A stretch of 64,000 bases of DNA, the filler included, from Collodictyon triciliatum (Eukaryota), in NCBI GenBank assembly GCA_043381765.1. It is 18 parts of 18 records of this genome, joined end to end, with 100 filler letters (N's around TTAATTAATTAA, not from the genome) between each part and the next. Parts side by side here need not be neighbours in the genome. Positions count along the whole stretch, not along the records: positions 53,473 to 56,919 come from JBHJMP010007309.1; 17 more parts are not named here. One strand, written 5' to 3'. Shown here in pieces: positions 3,951-57,997 of this stretch. The notes below the pieces were generated by a model. It was not told the origin of the DNA. It made no database searches and saw only the letters and a list, made by a program, of their open reading frames with translations. The translations under genes were made by a program, and so were the position numbers. Positions within the stretch are counted from its first letter, which is position 1. Each line of letters opens with the position of its first letter.

Positions 3951-4893
3951 ATGGCTGAGCAGCGCGTCTCCACCTTGATCATCGGAGCCGGAATGGCGGG
4001 CGTAACCACGGCGTACAAACTGGTGCGAACGCACGGACACAAAGCAACGCGCCCAGACCTGCTGATTCTGGAGGGACGCGATCGCGCAGGAGGCCGCATG
4101 CACACGCGCTTCGACTTTGGGGCAGACGGAAAAGGCATCATCGACTGCGGGGCGAGCTGGCTGCACACGCCGCGGGAAGAGCTCGGGCGCAATCCACTGC
4201 ATCAGGTAGCAGAGGAGCTCGGGATCCAACTCTCCGAGGATGACGGGCTGTCGGGAGATCTGGACCACATCTACGACGGGGTGCGGGGCGAGTTCATCCC
4301 GGCCGAGTTTGTGGGCCACGCCTTCGAGTGGCTGCTGCGGATCGTGGACTACGTGGACTCTACGTTCTCGGGCAAGACGAAGGGCGCGGCAAACCCGTCT
4401 GTGGCCGACGCCGTCCAGCCGCTCGTGGCGCACTGGCTCAGTCTCGGCCCCGACGGCGCGCCTGCGCACTCACCCGCCGCCCGGCCCGACCCTGCCTGGC
4501 CCGAGCGCCCCGACCCGATCGATCTGCCCGAGGGCTGGACGTGGCCCGACTTCATCGCCACCATGCGCCGCCTCATGCGCTGGAATCTGCGCGTCATGGA
4601 GCAGATCGACTCTGCCGTCCTCACCCGCATCTCTGCCGCCCAGTGGGACGCCATCACATTCATCTCCGACGAGGACCGCCTCGTTCCCGGCGGATACATC
4701 CAGTACATCACCCGCATGTCGGCCTTTTTCCCGCAGGCCATTGAGTTCAACAAGGTGTGTGCGATTTGTGTGTGATTTATGTGTGATTTGCGTGTCCTAC
4801 ACTGGGTTGTGTCGTCGCACCTATCCTCATCTGTCTGTTCTTTGGTTCTCTGCTTTTGTCTGGTCACTATTATTTCTATCTCTGTTACCGCCA

Positions 4894-4981
<88 letters not shown>

Positions 4982-24927: not shown

Positions 24928-25234
24928 TAAAATAATACATTAAAATATATGTCAAATAAATCAANNNNNNNNNNNNNNNNNNNNNNNNNNNNNNNNNNNN
25001 NNNNNNNNTTAATTAATTAANNNNNNNNNNNNNNNNNNNNNNNNNNNNNNNNNNNNNNNNNNNNAAAAATAAAAAACAAAAAATAAAAAACAAAAAATAA
25101 AAAACAAAAAATAAAAAACAAAAAACAAAAAACAAAAAACAAAAAACAAAAAACAAAAAACCATAAAAACAAAGAACAAAAAACGACGAAGCACAGGAAT
25201 ATATAAACCCAGCCCCCTCCTCCAGCACCGCCAC

Positions 25235-28200
25235 ATGGGGAATTCGCAAGCCAAGCCCAGTCCAATTCCTGAGGAAGCCCAACGCCGGGCCGACGAGGCA
25301 CGCGCCAAGCAGTTTGATCGCTTGGACCTCAGCCAGCTGGATCTGACCGGCCTGCCCGATCGCGTGCACCTGCCAAGCGTGCGGATCTTTGTCGTGCAGC
25401 GCAATCGCCTGACCCATCTGAGCGCCGTCTTCTGCCAGCGCTGGACGCAGCTGACAACTCTGGATCTGAGCCACAATCTCATCTCTCTGCTTCCCGCCGA
25501 CTTTGTGCGCCTGACGCAGCTTCAGCAGCTCGTGCTGACCGGCAACGAGCTGCAGGATCTCGACGAGAATGCGCTGCTTCTGCTGGGCCAGTTGCGCAGA
25601 CTCGAGGCTGGCAACAATCGCCTCGCGCGCATCCCAGCAAGTCTGTTCCGCTGCACAGCGCTGGAGCTCGCCGTCTTCCGGGGCAATCAAGTGCAGCTCT
25701 TGCCTTTACCCATGCAGATGCAGATGCAGATGCAACCGCCATCGTCCCGGCCCGCGGCGCATCCGACAGATATTTGCCGCCTGGCCCATCTCACACGCCT
25801 CGACATAGCTCGCAACCGCATCGAAGTGCTGCCGCTGGCCATGCTCGATGCAATGCCCGTATTGGCCGTTCTCCAGGCCTCCGCCAACCTGATTCACACT
25901 ATTGCAGCCGAACCGCACAATGCGACTTCTTTGCTCTCCGCCACGAGTCACCAGCCACTCAGCGCAACCACAGATGCGTCGCTCATTTCGCCGCGGAAGC
26001 TGGGCTCGTTCAAACCTTCACCCGAGTCACCGCGGCCATCACAGTTACAGAGCACACAGCATAACCCCCATGTATCTGCATCCTCCGAGCCACCCTCATT
26101 TCCAACTTCACTGCAGTCGCTGGATCTGCAAGAGAATGCACTTCTATCCATGCCAGAGTTTACGCTGTTAATGAAAAACATCGTCACTCTGAATCTCTCC
26201 AGAAACAGACTCACCGCATTGCCATCTCCTTTGTCTCAGCTAGTGTCGCTGGAGTCACTCATCCTCTCGTTCAACAGGCTCTTTGCCTTGCCTAAGGAAA
26301 TCAGCGTCCTCACCAGTCTCGATGAGCTTGATGTATCAAACAACATCTTGCTTTCGCTTCCCAGCGCCATCGGTGCTATGAGATGTCTTCGAAAGCTGCA
26401 GGCCCAACGCAATCAGATATCCGTGCTCAGTCCTTCCATTTGGATGCTGCCGTCTATCCGTGTCATTAATCTCACGTCAAACAAGATATCTGCTCTCCCA
26501 CCAATCAACGCTGATCAGGCACCCATTACGGGATGCTTGGCCGAATTGTATCTGAGTGATAACAATATCACCGAATTTCCGACGTCTCTGATCCACCTTT
26601 CCAGTTTGACTGCACTTGGGCTGTCATATAATCAGATTCCATCCCTGCCTGAAGGTATCGATAAGCTCGCCTACCTGCGATCACTGTTTCTGTCTGGTGA
26701 GCACTTCAATTTCCACTTATATGTGCAAGTTTCTTTATCTTTTTCTTTTCGTAACATCTTATCTCGTTACCAATTTCGTGACATTGTGTTTTCTTCATTT
26801 CGGTGAATTGAAATATGACGAATCAACTAGGAAATCAACTGTGGGATTTACCAGAGAAACTGAAGGACATCTTCGGACTCAGTTGGATTGTAAGACGGAT
26901 TACTTTCGTTTTTTAATTGTTGTTATCGTTGCTATCGTTTCTTCCCCCCTTTAATGTTACAAATTCAAACAAATTTAATGAGTGGAAGCACGATGTGTTC
27001 AGTAGCAGTTTTACACAGCTGCAAATAGAACGCCTTATAATAATGAGAATATCCCATCAAACATGTTTCGCGCTAAGGTCTAACTTTTTCCCCCTATTTT
27101 CCCTCAGTATATCAACCACAACCGTCTACGCGATCTTCCTTCTGTAATTTCGGATATGCCCCTGGAGATTATTGACTTCACCGGAATCGATGCTGCATCC
27201 GTTAAGTATACCAAAAACCCTTTATTCGATATGAAAGATTTCATTTCCAGAACCATTTCGTACATCTTGATAGATGTTTGTTAAAAGCCTCTATGCAACC
27301 ATCCTAATTTTAATTGTATTCACAGAGAAACACTACCCAGTGCCGATGCTTCGTGTGAGTATACTGAATCGAATTTGTGAAAACACAAAAGAAAGTCCAG
27401 TGCTTTCTTAAAAAAAAACAATCGAATAATTAGAGACATTTTACAATGAAAAGTTGAAATTTCATTCTTGACGTTATATTTCTGCATTGTTCTTGTCATT
27501 TCACAGCTTTCAGTGGCGTTGGGCGTCGGCGGTCAGATGGGTTCCGAGTGCAACCAAAAATAACGCAGAGCATACGTTTTAAGTAAGTTTTTAGAACGAA
27601 GCATCGCCATGTAACAAACGAAATTTCTGATTTCATCTTTGATTTTTACCTGTTCCTAAATTGTATTTGCCTCCAGTGTTGGTTATGCTGAAATGATAGG
27701 CCGAAGACCTGCGATGGAAGATTCGATGGCTATTCGAGGAAACTTTCGAAATTCAAATGGTAGAATAAGCTACTTCATAATATAATTTTTCCATGAAATA
27801 AAAAAAATACTTAATTTCTTTGTGGCAGAGCATACACTCATTGAATCTGTATCGATATATAATCTGTGTAATGGATATATATATTCAATGCAGCCCATCC
27901 TTGTTGTTTGACTCAATCCCTTAATATTATCATTGTGTTTTCCCGAACCATTTAGCCGAGGATTTCTTTGGCGTCTTTGATGGTCATGGTACAGGAGGAA
28001 AAGGAAAGGTCAATAACTATGAGTCTTTTCTTTCTTTTTCTCCTTTTTTTTTTCATCGTAAATCATTTCTCTTATACTTCTCCTTGATGGAAAGGCATAA
28101 TTATTAGTCAAGAAGTGAATCTTGCCTGTAAATAATCAATAACAAGATGTCGTTGATACTTCAGATTGCTGCAGACTACATCGCATACCACATTCCCAGA

Positions 28201-37199: not shown

Positions 37200-38287
37200 T
37201 CAACAAACATATACACACGAATAAATGACATTGAATATCTCTTGAATCAGTCTTTTAATGTTCATGGCAAAATCGGTCATCCCAGCACTTCATCCACCAC
37301 GCGTCTGGCGTTCAGAGCCAAAGAAGCCGAAGCTGCTTCCCAGCATGCAGGATAGGAAAATAATCAGTCTGGCCGATGTGTGTGCCATTATTACCCCACG
37401 CGAAATGATTTTGACACCTGAAGTCAGACTTACCGCATGAAACAAACCATATCTAAAATGCGATCTAGAAATATTAATTATGTGCATAATTTACGCAGGC
37501 ACACAACGCTAGCTTTGTCTCACCTGCTTTGTGCAGCAGACTCGGGATGCAAAAACTGGAACCGGACTTGCGCTTGGGAAGTCGCTCGCCATCACACTGA
37601 TTGCTGCATTGCTCATGTCACATCTTTCTCTTCTCTAAATAGCCCATTATATCTAGCCACCCATCGTGTGTATAATAAAAAGAATTCAAAAAAATCTTCG
37701 TTCTCTTGTCCTTGGCTTATGGAGACCATGAATGAGCCTGGCGCTGTTTGGGATGACACCGTGTTCGGGTCTGCATCACCAAAAGCGGATACCGTCCGAG
37801 CCGCCATGGCTATCGGAAGCGCTTTTATACATTTCTGGATATTATATACAATTACAATATATATAAGAAATTTTCCAAAATATTTGACAGAGTATTGAAT
37901 TGATTATATAATATATTGAAAATGATTTGAAAAGTGTGGTAGAATTGAGGAGGTGACAGATCCTAGATTACAGATTTTTTTTGCTAGCTTTCGTGCGTAT
38001 AGTCCAGTTCATGCCATTAATTTTATTTAAAAGAGCTGTTGGTTCCTCTATTACAAACACGTGGATAATCGACGTTTGACTCCGTCCCTCACGAACCTCC
38101 CCGATGTTTACCGCTCCACGAAATTCATCAACGCTGACATTTGGCTCCCTGGGGCTCTTTGATCGGGCGCTGTCAGAAAATACAGCGTCAACTCATTCCC
38201 AACCCAATATCGCTCTTCTTCTATGCTCCTTTCTTGTTTTGTTTTCCTTTTTTTCAGTAGCTTTTCCTAGGTTTCCATTCTGCTGCA

Positions 38288-39052
38288 ATGTCCGATCACA
38301 TTGTGCTTCTGGAAGAACTCCGCGAGGTTGTCAGAGATCCCAACATTGCCACACTGCAAGACCGCAAGTCGCTCAGTCTCCACAGACAAAATCTCCAGCA
38401 CGTCCCGCGCGGGGTTTTCCTTCTTTCTGGTTTGGTGCGTTTGACTCTGTCCCACAATCAGCTGCTTTTTCTACCACCAGAGATATCACACTTGATGGCC
38501 CTGGACATGCTTTCTCTTCATGATAATCAGCTGTTCCTGCTACCTCCTGAAATATCGGCCCTGTCGAGCCTCTCGACGCTGAATCTTTGCGGCAATTATT
38601 TATCAATCCTGCCAAAAGAAATATCCTGCTTGACGGCCCTCGTGTCTCTCTATTTAAATGAAAATCAGCTACGATTCATACCTCCTGAGATATCCTATCT
38701 AACCGGCCTCACCGAGTTCTTTGTTCACAAAAATCCGGTACCCGTATATGTAATCTGTATACTGATTTCTCTCCTCATATATATTTTTGGTGCGAATACC
38801 ATCGTGCATAATTAATAGTAAAAAAGAAAAAAAGAGCCCTCAACCTTTTATTCATTTTTATATTTTCAATATAGATAGATGAGCTCCCAGTTCAAATTAC
38901 AGCACTCACGAATGTGCAGATAATATTTGTCCACGGAGGTTGGAGGCAGACTATAAAAAGAGCACCGTACGGCATCACAAATCTCCCTTGTTGGTATAAC
39001 ACTAGTTACGGAGATTATCGCCACATCCGGGCTCTGCAGCTCTATGAACGAG
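38288..39052 (+). CDS. Leucine-rich repeat protein; 3' end truncated
   Basis: Repeats of LxxLxLxxNQLxxLPPEIS in exon 1 (38288-~38739); exon 2 (~38875-39052) IDELPVQITALTN...KRAPYGITNLPCW. Confidence 0.85.
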
Positions 39053-40858: not shown

Positions 40859-42497
40859 ATAGTTATCTGACAAGTCCAGGCTTTCGAGTCGTGTCATAAG
40901 TAACAGGCATTCGGGAACTTTGGTTAACTATATTGGAACGCAGGCATGTGAGACATAACAAAAAAGACAGGGAGTGCGGTGTCAACCTTCCCCAATCGAG
41001 TAACAAAAAGAAGTAAGAAAAAGGAAGAGGGAAAAGAGATAAAAAGAAGAAATAAGATGCTGAAAACTGCAAAAAAACCACAAAAAAATAAGAATGAAAG
41101 TTATTCCATTCTTAAGGAAACCTTGTTGCTGTTTATATCTAGCGAGATAAGTTTTGTCAATAGCGAAAAGGAATCCGGTAGGGTTGAAATCTAGGCGAAG
41201 CAAACTAACTTATTTCCGGCACGAACCAGTCAAGATGTGTCATTATTATTTCTTTATTTTCTTGATGGATGGACACATATACGTATACATATACATACGC
41301 ATATGCACACTCATACATATATACTAAAAAAAGAAGAAGAAAGGGCGGAGCATTGGAAGAGTCCCACCTCGTTGCTGGAAATATCCAACGATGTAAAATT
41401 TCTCCAAGTATCGAGAAGATGTGCGACAGTCACTAAAGATTCTCCTACGTAGTAAGGCGGGTGGTTGTACAGTTGCAAGGAATGGAGATATCTCTTGTGG
41501 TTATAATGTTGGTTATCCCAACACGGGAGCTTCTTGATCCCATAAGGCGCCTTCTTGACATTTGGAGAGCCACGATTCGCAAAGATGAGTGTGTCAAGTA
41601 ACTTGAGATTGGTGATGGCCTCGGGCAGTACAGAAACCTATTGTATTAGTCCAATAAAAAAAAGAAAAAGAAAAAGGAAAAAAGGAAAAAAAGAAAAGAA
41701 AAAAAGAAAAAAGAAAAAAAGAAAAAAAGAAAAAAAGAAAAAAAGAAAAAAAGATTGAGAAATTGGATTATTTAAAATCTATGAAGGGATGAGATTCGAA
41801 ATTGAATATCATTATTCACACAAAAAATACTAATGATTTCTTAATATGAAGAGTTACCAAATACAAAAAAAGAGAAGCGAAATTGTTTCTAGTACAAAGA
41901 AGCATATTAAAAAAAATTCACATAAGTTATTTTTCGTCAAACCTGGTTATCTAATAAATTGATATGGGTGAGGGTGGTCATCTGAGATATCTCCACAGGC
42001 AACTCAGATATATAATTCGAATTAATACTGATATGGCGAATATCAGGAAGTATGCTGAGAGAGATTGGGAAGGAGGTAAGCCCATTGTGCGAAAGGTCGA
42101 TTATGCTCAGGTTGCGCAACAATGAGATTTGCGAATGAAAGGTCGTTATGCGGTTATAACTCAGTTTGAGTATATGTAGCTCCGTCAAGCTACGTAATTC
42201 ACTCGGTAGGCATGAAATCTCGTTGTGCTCAAACTCTAAAACTCGCAGCTTCTTCAGTTTGAATATATCGGAGGGGAAGGATGTCAACTTGTGGCGACTC
42301 ATGTGGAGCTCAGCAAGATTTTTCAGGCAAGACAAACGGACCGGTAGAGCCAGAAGAAATCCTTGAGGTATTTCAAGGTACGTACACTCCCTGATGTTCC
42401 CTAAAGGCCACCATCTTATCATAACTCCTTCCCACGGAGCTTTCGGAGCAATCGGGTATGTGACGTGTGCCGCCGGTTTTGCCTGTTTGTTACCCAT
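40859..42497 (-). CDS. Leucine-rich repeat protein with N-terminal MGNKQAK; final exon unresolved
   Basis: LRRs in exon 1 (42497-~41944); exon 2 ~41637-41368; 69-nt exons 41122-41190 (ISTLPDSFSLLTKLISLDINSNK) and 40859-40927 (LTKVPECLLLMTRLESLDLSDNY). Confidence 0.85.
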
Positions 42498-42617
42498 ACT
42501 TGCGTCAACGCCTACAAAACAAAGTCAGTGCAGTGAGCGACAATTACAAAAATTCTAGTTCTTTGTCAGAACAATAATTCTAGATTAGATAATCAATGCC
42601 ATTACAAAAAAAAAAAA

Positions 42618-49815: not shown

Positions 49816-50566
49816 CGCGCTCGNNNNNNNNNNNNNNNNNNNNNNNNNNNNNNNNNNNNNNNNNNNNTTAATTAATTAANNNNNNNNNNNNNNNNNNNNN
49901 NNNNNNNNNNNNNNNNNNNNNNNTTTTTTTGTTGATCCTTTGGAAAAAGTGATCGGGCAAGCCAAAACTGCAAGCAATAAAACTGGGAAAAGTATAGGCT
50001 AAAGAAATTTGTATTACGCACATTGCGCATTAACTGCACGAATTTTCATGTATTGCATGAGCCAATGCCGAAAACATGTTGAAATGAAGCAATAAGAGTA
50101 TAAGTTCCAAAATAGATTTCCATAGAACTTTCGATCGCCCGTGATTGTTGATGAAGCAGACTCGCAGCGCGCAGCAAATCGCACCAAGGACTGAAGGTGC
50201 AACTCGTTCGAAAGAGCGATCACAAAGGTTCAACCAGAGACTATATTGCGTTACCCAAAGAAAACTGCCACAAATACACAAGCGTTTTCACTGTGGATTG
50301 TCGTGAGTAAAAAGAAAAGAAAAAAAAAAAGAAAAAGAAAAAGCGAAGGAACAAAGTCAAAATGGACTTTTTATTTCTGACTTATGAATGAAACCGAAGT
50401 GGTGTGTTAAGTAAATCGGTCTTCAAGGCTTAGTCTACTCACGTCTTTTCTTCTGAGGAGAGTTTGGATTTCTGTATTTCATTTTAAAGAACTCCTAAGG
50501 AAAGGAAAAACATACCCTTTTTTTTTCTTTTCCTTTTCACGCAGGAACAAAGCCGATAGAAAGACC

Positions 50567-53041
50567 ATGAGTCAAAGCACAACAGCACAAGAGCGCGTCG
50601 ATCAGGCGAACGAGATCGTTGACGCCAAACCCTTGGAAGCGCTGGCTCTTCTTCGCTCAGTTGTTGAGGAGCCCTTATCCGAGGATGAAGAGGCCATCAA
50701 GGCCAAGGAGCACGCCATTTTTGCTGTCGGCGAGCTCTACGCAAAGCTCGGGTCTGTAATTCAAGAATGATTGGCCATATGTTTCATCACCTTTGTATTA
50801 CAAACCTCTTCCTAGTTCCTTTGTTGATTTGCCCTTTCATTTATCCCTATATTTTCATGTATGATTTTTATTTTGATCACTACTTCTTTTGATCTTGTAT
50901 AAATGTCAAAGACTCACCAACTATATCTCCCTCACCTTCCTACCCAAATGAACTCAGCAAATTACAAGAGCTGAAAAATCTCTTGGTTCAAATTCGTCCA
51001 TTCTTTGGCGCTATCCCCAAAGCCAAGACAGCAAAAATAGGTTTTTGCTTGTGAAATCTTTTTCTTTCAATCGTTTATTTGCTGAAGCTCAGTAATGTGA
51101 GAAATAGGCACATTTCAATCGGATGAGCCTTTTAAAGAGCAACACGATTCGTAGTCATTCTGTTCCACACATAGTTCGCACGGTTATCGAGCAAGTGGCC
51201 AAAATCCCGAACAGTACCCAAGCCCAGATTCAATTATGTCTTGAGTCCATCGAATGGTCTAAGGCTGAAAAGAGAACTTTCCTTCGTCATCGAATCGAGA
51301 CAAAGCTTGGATCATTGTAATTCTATTCATACCGATGCATGGACACCAAACTCTCAAGTTGTAATCCTGTTATCTACTTCGTGGTGCTTCCATTCGAACT
51401 TAAACATTAAGGTTAACGCACGTCATGGAATATTCTACTAACATATTTTTTTTTTGGTTACATCATAAAATGTGACATTCTTAAGGTACCTTCAAAACAA
51501 GCAATTTTTGCCCGCCCTTAACATAATCACGTCATTGGTGCGCGAGGTTAAACGACTTGACGACAAGGCTCTTCTGTTAGAAATTCAGCTTCTCGAGTCG
51601 CAGATTCATTACGCGCTGAGAAATTTAGCAAAGTCCAAGGTACCAGTATTGGAAATATATAGTTGTATCATCTTACTCGCTTTTTTTCAATTCCCCCCTT
51701 TCTTTTGACATGTTACTTTGTTGGAGGAAACCGTTCTCCATGAGAAAAATATCTACAGATTTTCTCAAGATTTATTTAAATGAATCAGGGTTCGCTCACA
51801 TCCGCAAGAGCATGTGCAAACGGCATATACTGTCCTCCACTTCTTCAGGCGCAAATCGACCTTCAATCAGGCATTTTAAATGCCGAAGAGAAGGATTTTA
51901 AGACAGCGTACGTAATATCACCATTAATATACATACATACATACATACATACATACATACATACATACATACATACATACATACATACATACATACATAC
52001 ATACATACATACATACATACATACATACATACATACATACTGGGTACGTTTGTGTTAATCATTCATCTTTTCTCGAATTCAGGTACTCTTATTTTTATGA
52101 AGCCTTTGAAAACTTCTCTTCTCTAAATGAGCCTAGAACTTTTGCTTGCATCAAATATATGCTCCTTTGCAAAATCATGACCAACAACGTCAGTCTTTTA
52201 TATCTATATTTTAATTACTGTCTTTGAGAAGTCTTGCATTTGATTACTGAGTCATTGAAGTTGAAAAAGAGTGTCAAAGTATCTGTCTAAAAACTTGTTA
52301 TTTTCTTTTCTTTACAAACTCCCGAAATAGCCGGAAGATGTACAGGCCATTGTCAACGGGAAGCTTGCAGTGAAGTATGCGGGAGCGGAGGTTGAGGCCA
52401 TGAAGGCTATCTCAGACGCCCATACTCAGCGCTCTTTGAAAAAGTTTGAGGAAGCTGTCTCAACCTTTGACAAAGGTAATTAGACTAGAATCGTACAAGC
52501 CGTAAAAGCATCATCATCTTCTCGATTGCTTCCAACCTGGCCTACCTCTATTTTTCCTGTCTGTCTGATTGACGTGATATCAAGGGGAAAAAAAAGCATA
52601 ATAGTTAACATATCGGTGTTGTGAATAGAGCTCAAGCAAGACCCAATTGTCGACTCTCACCTTTCTGAGCTGTACGATATTCTCCTGGAACAAAATCTCG
52701 CTCGTCTGATTGAGCCCTTCGCCAAAGTGGAGATTGCCCACATTGCATACCTGATCAATCTTCCTATCAACAAAGTTGAATCCAAGTAAGTCAAGCCTCC
52801 TCTTCTCGTCTCACAAGCCTATCTGGACTCCCAGGCTAACCTTATGATGAATGTATTCTGCAGACTCTCTCAAATGATTCTGGACAAAAAATTCAATGGG
52901 ATTCTCGACCAAGGCGCAGGATGCTTGATTGCGTTTGAGGAGCCGAAAATCGATGGAACATACGCAAAGTCTCTCGAAACCATGGAGAACCTAAACAAGG
53001 TCGTCGACTCGCTCTTCGAAAGAGCCTCGGAAATCTCATAA
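50567..53041 (+). CDS. RPN6: 26S proteasome lid subunit Rpn6/PSMD11; complete, ~9 exons
   Basis: [119 protein letters not shown]. Confidence 0.96.
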
Positions 53042-53485
53042 ACAGAACTGCGGCTACAGAGCGCCCCCGTGAACTCACGCATTCAAAGACGCTGCAGACT
53101 ACTCAAGAGACATGATACAGCTTCGAAAACGAATCATTTCATTCCAACCTTTATCTTACAGGTTCAGGGATGCACACTTGGAGTTTGCCTTATTTTTTGT
53201 TTTGTTTTGTTTTGTTTGTTTGTTTGTTTGTTTGTTTGTTTGTTTGTTTGTTTGTTTGTTTGTTTGTTTGTTTGTTTGTTTGTTTGTTTGTTTGTTTGTT
53301 TTTACTTCATTTTATTACATTGAGATCTCACTTTGACGCGCCCGAAGCTCCCCACGCCTGGTTGCAACCAATNNNNNNNNNNNNNNNNNNNNNNNNNNNN
53401 NNNNNNNNNNNNNNNNTTAATTAATTAANNNNNNNNNNNNNNNNNNNNNNNNNNNNNNNNNNNNNNNNNNNNAAAAAAAAAAAAA

Positions 53486-53536
<51 letters not shown>

Positions 53537-53626
53537 AAAAAAAAGATAAAAGAAAAAGCCACCAGCGATAAAGCATGAAGCTTAGCAACCTGCCTCACAC
53601 GCAGTACGACAAAGCGGCGCCAGAAG

Positions 53627-55231
53627 ATGACTCTAAGCAGCGTCCTTGGAGTTTTGCTTGGTGGGGTCACCAAAGTGCGTCCTTGCATCGGAATCTTCTC
53701 TTACTTCCGCGTCCCCGAGGAAGGGATGAAGCACTGGGAGGTTTTGTCCCGCGGATCGGCCTTCTTTGTCCGCTCTCCACAGACAAACTCGCTCAAAGTC
53801 CTGACCGCTGCGGTGAGAAACCATCGGTCTTGTTTTCATGCGGCCCTCCTTCTTGTTTCCAGCCGACGGGCCACACCTGCTCTATTTCATCAGCCTTCCC
53901 TTTCGTAGCATATCACCCACCCGTTTCTCTACCCGCGGTTTTATCCCCAAGAGTGGCTTCGTGCTGTGAAGGAGAAGCATACGCGGTATGAGGTTCTAGT
54001 GAAAGACGTGAGTATATCGCCTCTGGCCATAACATACACATGCTGTCTCCTCGCAATCCGTCATGTGCCACCACAACAACCGGCTTTAGGTTATATCATG
54101 GCCCATTTCTTTATATCAGATAAAATATCACCTCGCTTTGCAATCCTTTATATATATGCATTAAGAGAAGGAGATATACTCAAATTAGTACATTCAGTCT
54201 CAATCAGGATTATATACATATATTGCCATTTAGATAGTAATTCGTATTTGTCGCACGTATGTAATATCAAGAGATTCTGGCACTGTAGCTGATATGTTCC
54301 CACGTACGCATACACGCATACTTTTCATAGGAAATCACGGGTGATGTACTTTGGCGTCAAAATCTCCCGAAAATCGGCCTTGTTGACGAGGAAAATGACG
54401 TTGCCGTACTTGAGTCACCTCCGGAACATTACATCCAGCAAAAGTTGATTCAAGCCGGCATTGGTGTTCGAATTCTGGACATCGCAAATGATGTCCCCAC
54501 AAAGAATCAGGCAAGTTTGAGATATAGTGAGAAATATGCCTAAAGTAGATCATACGTCTTTCCTCTTTCCACTTACATTTGTACTGTACTAATTGCACTC
54601 CCAAATAAAGGTGATTATGATTATGATTATGATAATGATAATGATAATGATAATGATAATGGTAATAATAATGGTAATGGTAATGATAATGATAATGGTA
54701 ATGGTAATGATCATGATAATATTATTATTATAATACCAAAATACATAAATAAGAAATAAACACTGCTTATTTCTTACCAGAATATATATCATGATTGATG
54801 TGCGATTATGACAATATCACCAGGGCATCAGCTTTTCTGGCCACACAATAAGCACGCAAGTGCCAGCGAGCATGGAAGAAGAGAAAGAACTTGGAGAAAC
54901 TTTAATTCCTGATGAATCTCCCGGCTTTGTCCACTCGCACACAAACAGAATGATATTCGCCCATACGCAGAAGGAGCTTTCTGTCGGGATGTGTGGCGGC
55001 CCTGTTCTAAGCGGCGAATCGTGCGTGGGTTTACTCACAGCCAAAGTCCAGACTCCGGGAGCAGACGACCACCTCACTTTGGAGCAGCGGGCCCTGCGCC
55101 ATGAGCTGAAGGACAAGGCGGTTTTCGTGCCGACAAGCATTCTGAACAGTCTGATTGCACAGTCGAGCCAAGACGAATCGAATGTTTCTTCTGATGAGAA
55201 TGTCGCAAATGAAGGAGACTTTAAAATGTGA
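53627..55231 (+). CDS. Trypsin/chymotrypsin-fold (PA clan) protease-like protein with Cys at the nucleophile position; 4 exons
   Basis: Exons 53627-53812, 53909-54007, 54331-54510, 54824-55231, all phase 0. Motifs GSAFFV, VLTAAH, NDVAVL and LSVGMCGGPVL...CVGLL. Confidence 0.75.
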
Positions 55232-55833
55232 ACCGCCAAATTCAAAGCAAAAAAGGAGGATGATAAATATACAACCAAATACAATACTCCATCTAGTGCG
55301 CATGTAAAAGAAGAAAAGCCAAAATAGTATACACGAATATTTTCATAAGATCTCAACAATTCAATAATGCATTAAGCAATAACAATTAATATATATATAT
55401 CGCCAGAAGCTTTTCTTGTTTGCGACGAAAGTTTGAACGAAAGCCTCGCTAAGCGCAATGTCTGGATTTCTGTGCGCTTGGGCCATCTCTAATCACCTAA
55501 TTATCTTATGTAGATACACTTGGCGCCCATCTCTTTCCTTGGTTTTTTTACTCTTGTTCTTACCCTTCTGTCCGATTTGACCGCTAAACAAAAAAAACAA
55601 AAAAAAACAAAAATAAATATATGATGGAATCAAGCAACCATAAAGTATATTTTGATAGTGGTTTTTCTTTTCTTTTCTGTTATAAAACATGATTGATTCG
55701 TGCTGATTAGATGGCTGTTTGTCTGGCTATTGGTGCCACTATGGGACATGAAAATCACTAGAAAAGAAAAAAAATTATAGTGTAGGTTATCATCCTTTTG
55801 TCTCTTCTGCTTCTTCTTTATGGATGGGTTGCC

Positions 55834-56760
55834 TCATGCAGCTGCCTCGGTATCTTCTCTCAACCTTTTGGAGTAAGTGTGTGCGTGCGCGCTTGAGTTT
55901 GAAGGAGCGTTGGTTGCAACAGGAATCGGGCGCGTGTGTGGCACATGTTTTCGGCGCTTCTTTGGCTTAACTTGATATTCATGATATGATTCCGAAGGAT
56001 ATTTGGGCATTCTATACACGGGCATCACATCAGCATTCTTGAATCACACACATATATATGCTTTCCCGGATAAACAAACATTGATTATATTCTTGGTCCT
56101 CAGAAATATATGAATAAGATAAATATCACATTTTATGAAAAGGCTTGATGTGTTTTTGTCATGTTCGATTAATTGTTCGTACTCGTGAGGTTCCAGCGGG
56201 AGCGGCGCGTTTGTAAAATATGGTGATTGGAGAGCCTCTTCTGCAGATATACGCCTTTTTGGGTCTACACACAGCATTTTCTCAAGTAACTCACGGGCGT
56301 CTGGTCGAACCCTAAACGATGCGACATAGTTAAATAACTTTTTTTTTGGATGAATAGGTTGAGACGATTAGGTATTTAGTTGAAACAATTCGGGTGGTGG
56401 AGCTACTGTAGATATATTGTTGGTTATAATTCACAATCATGCCTTTATAGTCTGTTCGCAATTATTATTATTATTATTATTTAAAAAAAACCCAAATACC
56501 TCACAAATTAATGGTTGTAAATGTTTCTTTTTCTTTCGTTTTGATAAAAAATAATAATAATAATTACTCTCTATATACAGTATTGAAGCGGTTAGGATAA
56601 TTTGCAATCGCCAGGCGGTTAAATATTGGAAGCTTGGATACGCCTGGGTACGTATCTTCTGTAGGCTTTCCACACACTCTGCAGATGCGGTCGATCTGGT
56701 CGATTTCATCCTTTCCCGGGAACAAGGTTGAACGTGTGAGTAATTCACCAAATATGGCCC
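55834..56760 (-). CDS. Cyclin-dependent kinase, CDK9/CDK12/CDKC type; C-terminal exons
   Basis: GAIFGELLTRSTLFPGKDEIDQIDRICRVCGKPTEDTYPGV, ARELLEKMLCVDPKRRISAEEALQSPYF, MPKYPSESYHEYQVKPKKRRK (HE plus basic tail typical of transcription-elongation CDKs). Confidence 0.85.
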
Positions 56761-57019
56761 TAGGTCACAAGAAGAACAAACTCCTTTATAATTTGTTCTA
56801 ACTCACTTTAATATACAAGAAATGAAACAAAAATGAAACAAAAATGAAACAAAAATGAAACAAAAATGAAACAAAAATGAAACAAAAATGAAACAAAAAT
56901 GAAACAAAAATGAAACAAANNNNNNNNNNNNNNNNNNNNNNNNNNNNNNNNNNNNNNNNNNNNTTAATTAATTAANNNNNNNNNNNNNNNNNNNNNNNNN
57001 NNNNNNNNNNNNNNNNNNN

Positions 57020-57997
57020 ATGCAACCCCAACCACAGCCGTCCTGAACAACAAAGGAGAATGGCGCTCACGACGTCCCATCTCATACGGAGCACCGTCGC
57101 CATTTTTCTTTCGCCTGAAGAACCAAAGGCGGTCCATCACACCTGATTCTCCGCAATTCTCGATGGCCATGGCGTACTCCAAATTCTTTCGATACAAAAT
57201 ATCGCCGCGGACACCTTACAAAAAGTCAAAACATCAACGATGGGGAGAAACACTGGGCATCACACACACCGCTCACCGCGAGCTGGAGACAAGCACGAAC
57301 CCCGCAAGTCCTTCCAAGTCACCGCTCTTTAATGCTTAATATCACCAATAGGGAGCTATGGATAGGCACACGCGTAGTCCATGCAGCAACGACCTCTCCC
57401 AAGAATGCACACTTTGCAGCAACGGTGATGAAACCATTGAGCACACGTTTGTGAAGTGTCCCTTCGCTCAAACACTGCGCGAAACAGCCGGCGAGATTCT
57501 TCGACTGACACTCAAGACGGCTGCGGCTGTTTGTCCAATCCAGGCGATATTTTTGCCTCTTCAACAGCGACATCCAGATGCAAAAACATTCTGGGCAGTG
57601 ACGCGAGGCCATTTGCTATGAACAATGTGGATAGCGCGCATATACTCACGCAAAGCAAGACTCAACAACCAGCCACCCATTCCGGATAATAGACTGGATG
57701 ACATCATACAAATCTCTTTCCTCAACAGCTTCCTTCGCCACCTGCACGTTCTCTACTACTCAGACCCTGTGAGAAGAGACATGTGGAAAGAAGCTGAGAA
57801 AGATATTAAACCTCGCCTTGTCTCTCTCTCATGCAAGCACAAGACTCTGGCTATTGGCCTAACCGCAGAATGCAATTCCTGATTACCGACTTCTTCTCCG
57901 CCACCCGGCCAACAAGTAGCGTCCATGCAAACGGTGGCTGAAACATTGGAGACAGGAACTCCATCTCCATACGCAAAGAAAAATAAACAAAATAAAA
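57020..57997 (+). mobile_element. 3' end of a decayed non-LTR (L1/Tx1-like) retrotransposon with A-rich tail
   Basis: ECTLCSNGDETIEHTFVKCPFAQ (zf-RVT CCHC pattern), FWAVTRGHLL*TMWIAR with stops and frameshifts; A-rich run ~57975-57997; second copy at 49190-49642. Confidence 0.8.

Follow-up and report, generated by a model that had tools for sequence, protein, structure and literature searches.

How can a spliced nuclear gene encode a protein of the trypsin fold with a cysteine in the place of the catalytic serine, and does such a protein come from cells or from viruses? The question is raised by a protease gene on the plus strand of a stretch of DNA from Collodictyon triciliatum (GCA_043381765.1), 64,000 nucleotides long with filler included (hereafter the window). 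The window is formed by 18 parts of 18 records joined by 100-N spacers; positions 53473-56919, where the gene lies, are from JBHJMP010007309.1, and neighbouring parts are not necessarily adjacent in the genome. As stated in passages of two earlier papers, the nine cysteine families of the PA clan are those of positive-strand RNA viruses, its cellular members use serine, and the HtrA (S1C) proteases are the nearest cellular relatives of the viral enzymes (PMC4576821, PMC6524800). A previous inspection of the DNA (the sequence-only reading) had proposed a cellular, intron-containing 3C-like cysteine protease, arisen either by a Ser-to-Cys switch or by old viral capture. In the present study we find that the gene probably encodes a 290-residue single-domain PA-fold peptidase, a member of a conserved, apparently eukaryote-only and PDZ-less family that descended from serine proteases of the HtrA/Deg type (Trypsin_2) and has a cysteine nucleophile in GMCGGP.

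Reading and translation of the window gives a gene of four exons between 53627 and 55231, with the ATG at 53627 and the TGA at 55229-55231 (Table 1). The joined exons comprise 873 nucleotides and are translated into 290 residues with one terminal stop, and the three introns, GT-AG, GT-AG and GC-AG in this order, are every one of phase 0. The spliced product presents GSAF (residue 43), LTAAH, NDVAV and GMCGGP one after the other. The presumptive triad follows the canonical order of a PA-clan (trypsin-fold) protein, with His63 (CAT, 53909-53911) as the opening codon of exon 2, Asp118 encoded by GAC at 54397-54399 and Cys212 by TGT at 54992-54994. Coordinates, codons and motif order are as the sequence-only reading had stated them, and its assignment to the PA clan with His-Asp-Cys holds as well. 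Only about 20 residues lie ahead of the first strand, and 78 residues separate Cys212 from the C-terminal end.

The gene model is supported by public sequencing data. Five runs are listed for the stretch, four of which contain part of it, and their contigs were mapped onto the window (X1-X4). X1 and X2 come from one study, possibly of the same organism as the assembly, and their status as RNA is guessed; X3 and X4 are freshwater metatranscriptomes from two further studies, with contigs at least 99% alike, and X3 is on record as RNA. The three introns are found spliced out in these contigs, at the joints given in Table 1, and X3 has two short loose ends, which agree with the last letters of exon 1 and the first letters of exon 4. 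The Cys codon is covered in contigs of X1, X2 and X4 and is TGT, unaltered, in all three. In the exons, the differences listed for the RNA contigs are limited to 55063 and 55204, both synonymous third positions according to our reading of the frame. Furthermore, a relative from a metagenome (L007) whose gene is a single open frame aligns collinearly with residues 11-285 of the window protein, across all four exons, and therefore gives independent support to the four-exon model. In an X2 contig, 23 letters stand upstream of 53603, adjoining an AG, and have no match in the window with three or fewer mismatches. We read in this leader an in-frame TAA and no ATG ahead of 53627, which therefore supports that start codon; the leader may belong to an upstream exon that fell into the assembly gaps at 53374-53472, or may be a trans-spliced leader. 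One X1 contig starts in intron 2 (54056-54330 runs unspliced into exon 3) but has intron 3 removed; this transcript is partly processed or intron-retaining.

Exon 4 was scanned with HMMER against 1.84 billion representative proteins, which returned 13 matches: 11 proteins with GMCGGP, the window's own product and one unrelated repeat protein. The relatives were found from exon 4 alone at E values of 2.4e-30 and below, and the observation therefore exceeds chance. A profile built from five full-length members retrieved 22 proteins of 195-403 residues, all of the same family. One member (P0015) is named at source, from a Cyanoptyche-like MMETSP transcriptome, the rest being unnamed or called 'hypothetical protein'; the taxonomic range given here is taken from that transcriptome and from the genes neighbouring the metagenome relatives. 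No longer protein containing exon 4 was found by a word-indexed search, and the family profile gave no longer or fused forms, which is weak evidence. The protein atlas annotates the family as 'trypsin-like peptidase' only, and searches of the full-text literature gave no description of it, subscription journals and the MEROPS database being outside their scope; the motif string led to a single paper, on plant carotenoids.

Conservation was analysed in an alignment of the window protein with 31 relatives, in which rows were counted only where they cover the column. All 26 rows covering the His column have this residue, as do all 28 for Asp and all 30 for Cys. The partial P0006 is 49% identical to the window protein and the others are 23-33% identical, and the triad has therefore been retained across deep divergence. 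Around the cysteine the motif varies only to GSCGGP (P0031), GMCGGA (P0025) and GMCGAP (P0027), and the segment after the catalytic His reads HVTHPFLFPxYYP... in the family. Positions 55034-55039, after CVGLL, encode Thr-Ala (G-L-L-T-A) in the window protein, as in its closest relative P0006, and at least 90% of the family have Glu-Gly there (G-[VIL]-[VIL]-E-G). This Thr-Ala change is branch-specific and adjoins the presumed S1 pocket wall.

A metagenome scan added 44 confirmed family loci out of 76 motif matches. At 40 of the 44 the motif is inside an open frame of 100 residues or more, and at 24 the whole gene is in a single frame. In 35 frames scanned from nine of the loci the neighbours are eukaryotic, namely condensin Cnd3, ArfGap with FYVE, EDC4, RCC1, a pectinacetylesterase, ankyrin/WW and EF-hand proteins, an LRRK2-type ARM protein and a GOST seven-transmembrane protein, with neither shared synteny nor a viral hallmark gene among them. 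The family is under constraint, with non-synonymous change far below synonymous change: for the pair L024/L028 the proportion of non-synonymous differences (pN) is 0.17 vs 0.82 for synonymous ones (pS), and other pairs give ratios of the corresponding rates (dN/dS) of 0.23-0.42 in frames that include upstream sequence. A scan of prokaryote species genomes with a single protein gave no relative; the DNA pattern LxxGMCGGPV was met in prokaryotes at 25 loci, all of them motif-only matches in unrelated contexts, with a best score of 16.5 bits against the family hidden Markov model. One metagenome contig (L013, GC 0.67) bears two copies of the family gene tail to tail, at 3956-4942 (+) and 5893-5210 (-), and the family has therefore undergone local duplication in at least one lineage.

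The fold and the kinship of the family were explored by structure prediction and by profile comparison. P0015 was modelled with AlphaFold2 from a family alignment of 26 rows. The model has a predicted local distance difference test score (pLDDT) of 93.7 and a predicted template modelling score (pTM) of 0.89, and its strand pattern is that of two barrels, with a helix at the C-terminus; the double beta-barrel expected by the sequence-only reading is thus predicted for this relative. A structural search (VIA-align) with the P0015 model found 124 representative chains at Z>=8, S1-family proteases first, led by DegS (Z 20.2, root mean square deviation 2.6, 180 residues aligned) and followed by Deg9 and Deg2 (Z 19.2 each), Deg1 (Z 18.6) and HtrA3 (Z 18.1). 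Foldseek with P0015 returned HtrA1, HtrA3, Deg9, SplA and V8 at E about 1e-9, with a probability of 1.00 for HtrA1. In Pfam, 17 of 26 members match Trypsin_2 (PF13365) at E<=1, with a best value of 1.9e-9. Seven members were scanned one by one, of which P0015 (28.2 bits) and P0017 (29.9) exceed the Trypsin_2 cut-off of 27.6 bits, as does the L005 frame (42.1). The Pfam matches of the 26 members at E<=1 include no PDZ family.

The profile comparison used five bacterial HtrA genes from two prokaryote genomes and 14 picornain-3C-type stretches from viral contigs (11 full and three partial Peptidase_C3 matches, mostly enterovirus-like); picornain 3C was the sole viral family compared in this way, the 3C-like proteases of protist viruses lying outside the comparison. 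With hhalign the family aligns to HtrA over 107 columns (Prob 91.3%, E 9.4e-7), to picornain 3C over 18 columns, in the GxCGG stretch only (Prob 4.9%, E 0.0082), and HtrA aligns to picornain 3C over 19 columns (Prob 0.15%, E 0.39). In the alignment of the family with HtrA, Asp falls on the catalytic Asp and Cys on the Ser of GNSGGP. Peptidase_C3 of Pfam has a single match among the 26 members, about 20 residues long and with an E value of 0.18. The term '3C-like', taken as a statement of kinship, is therefore not supported, in view of 91% for HtrA vs 5% for picornain 3C and of 17 vs 1 of 26 members for Trypsin_2 and Peptidase_C3.

Invariant His, Asp and Cys together with an intact GxCGG turn make an active endopeptidase the economical reading, and His63, Asp118 and Cys212 are thereby putative catalytic residues. 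In the mechanism that we propose, Asp118 would orient His63, which would deprotonate Cys212 with formation of a thiolate-imidazolium pair. The thiolate of Cys212 would attack the scissile bond, with the backbone amides of the GMCGG turn serving as the oxyanion hole, and a thioester acyl-enzyme intermediate would be formed and then hydrolysed. The net result would be the chemistry of the viral 3C type on an HtrA-like scaffold.

The same fold may nevertheless serve other ends, and the protein could be non-proteolytic or differently catalytic: a binding pseudoprotease, a redox-sensing thiol protein, or an acyl-transfer or ligase-type enzyme with a Cys thioester. Cellular pseudoenzymes of the PA fold are indeed common among the structural neighbours (haptoglobin, HGF, the SMIPPs of scabies mites, MamO). 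Pseudoproteases typically lack one or more residues of the triad, whereas here neither the triad nor the GxCGG oxyanion turn varies at 23-49% identity, a pattern to be expected from a functional catalytic site rather than a binding module. We consider this explanation unlikely, albeit one to keep in mind.

With regard to origin, the sequence-only reading had left two routes side by side. A Ser-to-Cys switch in a cellular ancestor of the peptidase is favoured by the present data and would be the most likely origin. The other route, an ancient capture of a 3C-like cysteine protease from a positive-strand RNA virus, is in our estimation very unlikely. It would account for the identical chemistry and the similar GxCGG motif, and it can also claim the touch of Peptidase_C3 on a single member and the presence of potyvirus NIa and Picornavirales polyproteins in the BFVD list of viral structures (E about 3e-8 to 3e-7). 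However, the leading rows of that list are giant-virus trypsin/Do-like proteins and not cysteine proteases of RNA viruses, and the likeness to 3C in hhalign is confined to the motif columns, vs the far longer match to HtrA. The highest-ranking structural matches are without exception cellular S1C/S1B proteases, with no 3C or 3C-like protease among the best 50 (lowest Z 15.3), although absence there proves nothing. A scan of viral contigs with the family profile gave six motif matches, none of them a relative, and the Gly-x-His that is invariant in the 3C comparators is absent from the family. Furthermore, the gene stands alone, has a start and a stop of its own and is interrupted by three spliceosomal introns; nothing viral was found near it, no gene for an RNA-dependent RNA polymerase, helicase or capsid adjoins it here or adjoins its relatives at nine other loci, and those relatives sit among eukaryotic housekeeping genes. 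The claim of a cellular, intron-containing nuclear gene is thus borne out by the splice joints in RNA and by the RPN6 and protein kinase neighbours in the window.

The opposite direction of transfer can also be envisaged: the family would be the surviving cellular lineage of HtrA-like proteins that underwent the Ser-to-Cys change, and the picorna-like viruses of early eukaryotes would have acquired the 3C-type cysteine protease from this lineage or one closely related to it. We regard this as quite unlikely; were it true, the nucleophile switch that defines the viral cysteine families would have arisen in cells and not in viruses.

That the cysteine is a private substitution, a sequencing error or the artefact of a wrong gene model has a negligible probability, given TGT in the assembly as well as in contigs from three runs, belonging to two studies, Cys in every homologue found (the result on which the sequence-only reading had made a private substitution depend) and the collinearity of the four exons with the single open frame of L007.

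Several points weigh against the interpretation of the gene product as an HtrA-derived cysteine peptidase. The evidence for the fold comes by proxy from P0015, which is 33% identical to the window protein over 245 columns, and the single exons of the window match no Pfam family. Exon 4 by itself gave nothing meaningful against the sequences of the PDB. The 17 weak PDB sequence matches, all of HtrA type and with Cys on the Ser of GNSGGP, are by themselves not significant (E >=0.23). His is placed on His in a greedier alignment of the family with HtrA, which is a low-confidence extension. The search pattern of the metagenome scan included the Cys, so that Ser variants were invisible to it. Finally, the Thr-Ala after CVG makes the branch of the window protein somewhat atypical.

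The peptidase would act inside the cell, possibly in an organelle in the case of some members. No signal peptide is evident. Some single-frame relatives (L001-L005, L009, L044) carry an N-terminal extension of 63-150 residues that abounds in Arg, Ala, Ser and Thr and is poor in acidic residues, its length being counted from the first Met of the open frame, which may overshoot; the other relatives mostly have 28-49 residues ahead of the protease domain, and one has only 6. By composition alone these extensions look like organelle presequences.

If the His-Asp-Cys triad works as proposed, the family is a natural cellular counterexample to a PA clan that uses only serine in cells, and could itself constitute a new peptidase family. 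It offers a natural test case of how a Ser-to-Cys switch of the nucleophile is tolerated, and a cellular protein to set beside the 3C-like proteases when asking for their origin. What it does in algae and other protists could be addressed by ordinary genetics and biochemistry, and, pending biochemistry, it is of real interest to specialists in proteases and in the origin of viruses.

The features of the gene and its surroundings in the window are collected in Table 1. The protease gene lies between a multi-exon gene for the proteasome protein RPN6 and an exon of a protein kinase, the latter followed by a retroelement zinc-finger remnant (zf-RVT). No paralogue of the protease gene is present inside the window, and Rfam gave no match in 52500-56000. 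Elsewhere in the window there are leucine-rich repeat (LRR) proteins, a GT61 glycosyltransferase, an O-fucosyltransferase and a sulfotransferase. A stretch of 17 kb contains three LRR_8-rich open frames, which may form a small cluster of LRR genes. The space between RPN6 and the protease gene and intron 3 both contain microsatellites.

Table 1. The protease gene and its surroundings, in positions of the window, with the supporting evidence
Feature	Positions	Strand	Evidence or content
5' untranslated part of exon 1	53603..53626	+	X2 RNA contig, preceded there by the 23-letter leader absent from the window
Exon 1, 62 codons: start codon, first beta-strands, GSAF; ends with LTAA just before the His codon	53627..53812	+	X2 joint; N-terminus aligns with full-length relatives
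Intron 1, 96 nt, GT-AG, phase 0	53813..53908	+	X2 joint 53811>53908 (shorter side 22 letters); a 12-letter X3 loose end is the exon 1 end
Exon 2, 33 codons: begins with catalytic (putative) His63 (HITHPF)	53909..54007	+	His in 26/26 covering rows
Intron 2, 323 nt, GT-AG, phase 0	54008..54330	+	Joint 54007>54331 in X2 and X3; an X1 contig begins within
Exon 3, 60 codons: Asp118 in ENDVAVL	54331..54510	+	Asp in 28/28 rows; sits on the HtrA catalytic Asp in the profile comparison
Intron 3, 313 nt, GC-AG, phase 0	54511..54823	+	Joint 54507>54821 in X1 and X2; with 4 ambiguous letters equal to 54510>54824, which fits GC-AG 54511-54823
(TGATAA)n array in intron 3	54612..54720		18 copies
Exon 4, 135 codons and TGA: second beta-barrel, GMCGGPV with Cys212, C-terminal helix and tail	54824..55231	+	Cys in 30/30 rows; aligns on the Ser of GNSGGP
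RPN6 gene, multi-exon	50411..53041	+
RPN6 N-terminal domain	50411..50770	+
RPN6 PCI domain and C-terminal helix	52790..53041	+
Space between RPN6 and the protease gene	53196..53557		(TTTG)n microsatellite of 25.8 copies, two N runs, 85-base A-rich run
Protein kinase exon	56044..56367	-
Retroelement zinc-finger remnant (zf-RVT)	57352..57621	+
LRR_8-rich open frame	25115..26806
LRR_8-rich open frame	38261..38815
LRR_8-rich open frame	41937..42524

Among known systems, the viral 3C and 3C-like proteases (clan PA; C3, C4, C24, C30, C37 and others) share with the family the class of fold, the His-Asp-Cys triad and a Cys placed in a GxCGG turn, and thiol-based catalysis is presumably common to both. 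The viral enzymes are domains of polyproteins, whereas the family is encoded by a standalone, intron-bearing nuclear gene. The Gly-x-His after the nucleophile, a substrate-pocket motif of 3C proteases, sets the 3C comparators apart from the family. The HtrA/DegP/DegS/Deg proteases (MEROPS S1C) are closest to the family both in fold and in profile. The order of the triad and the motifs are the same, FAxTxxxLxxGMCGGPV of the family aligning on the HtrA stretch that ends in GNSGGP, and the Thr-Ala of the window protein and P0006 resembles HtrA at that site. The two differ in the nucleophile, which is the Ser of GNSGGP in HtrA and Cys in all covering rows of the family, and in architecture, since HtrA proteins bear at least one C-terminal PDZ domain whereas the family members are PDZ-less and mostly of 250-400 residues; the segment that follows the catalytic His is likewise specific to the family when set against HtrA.

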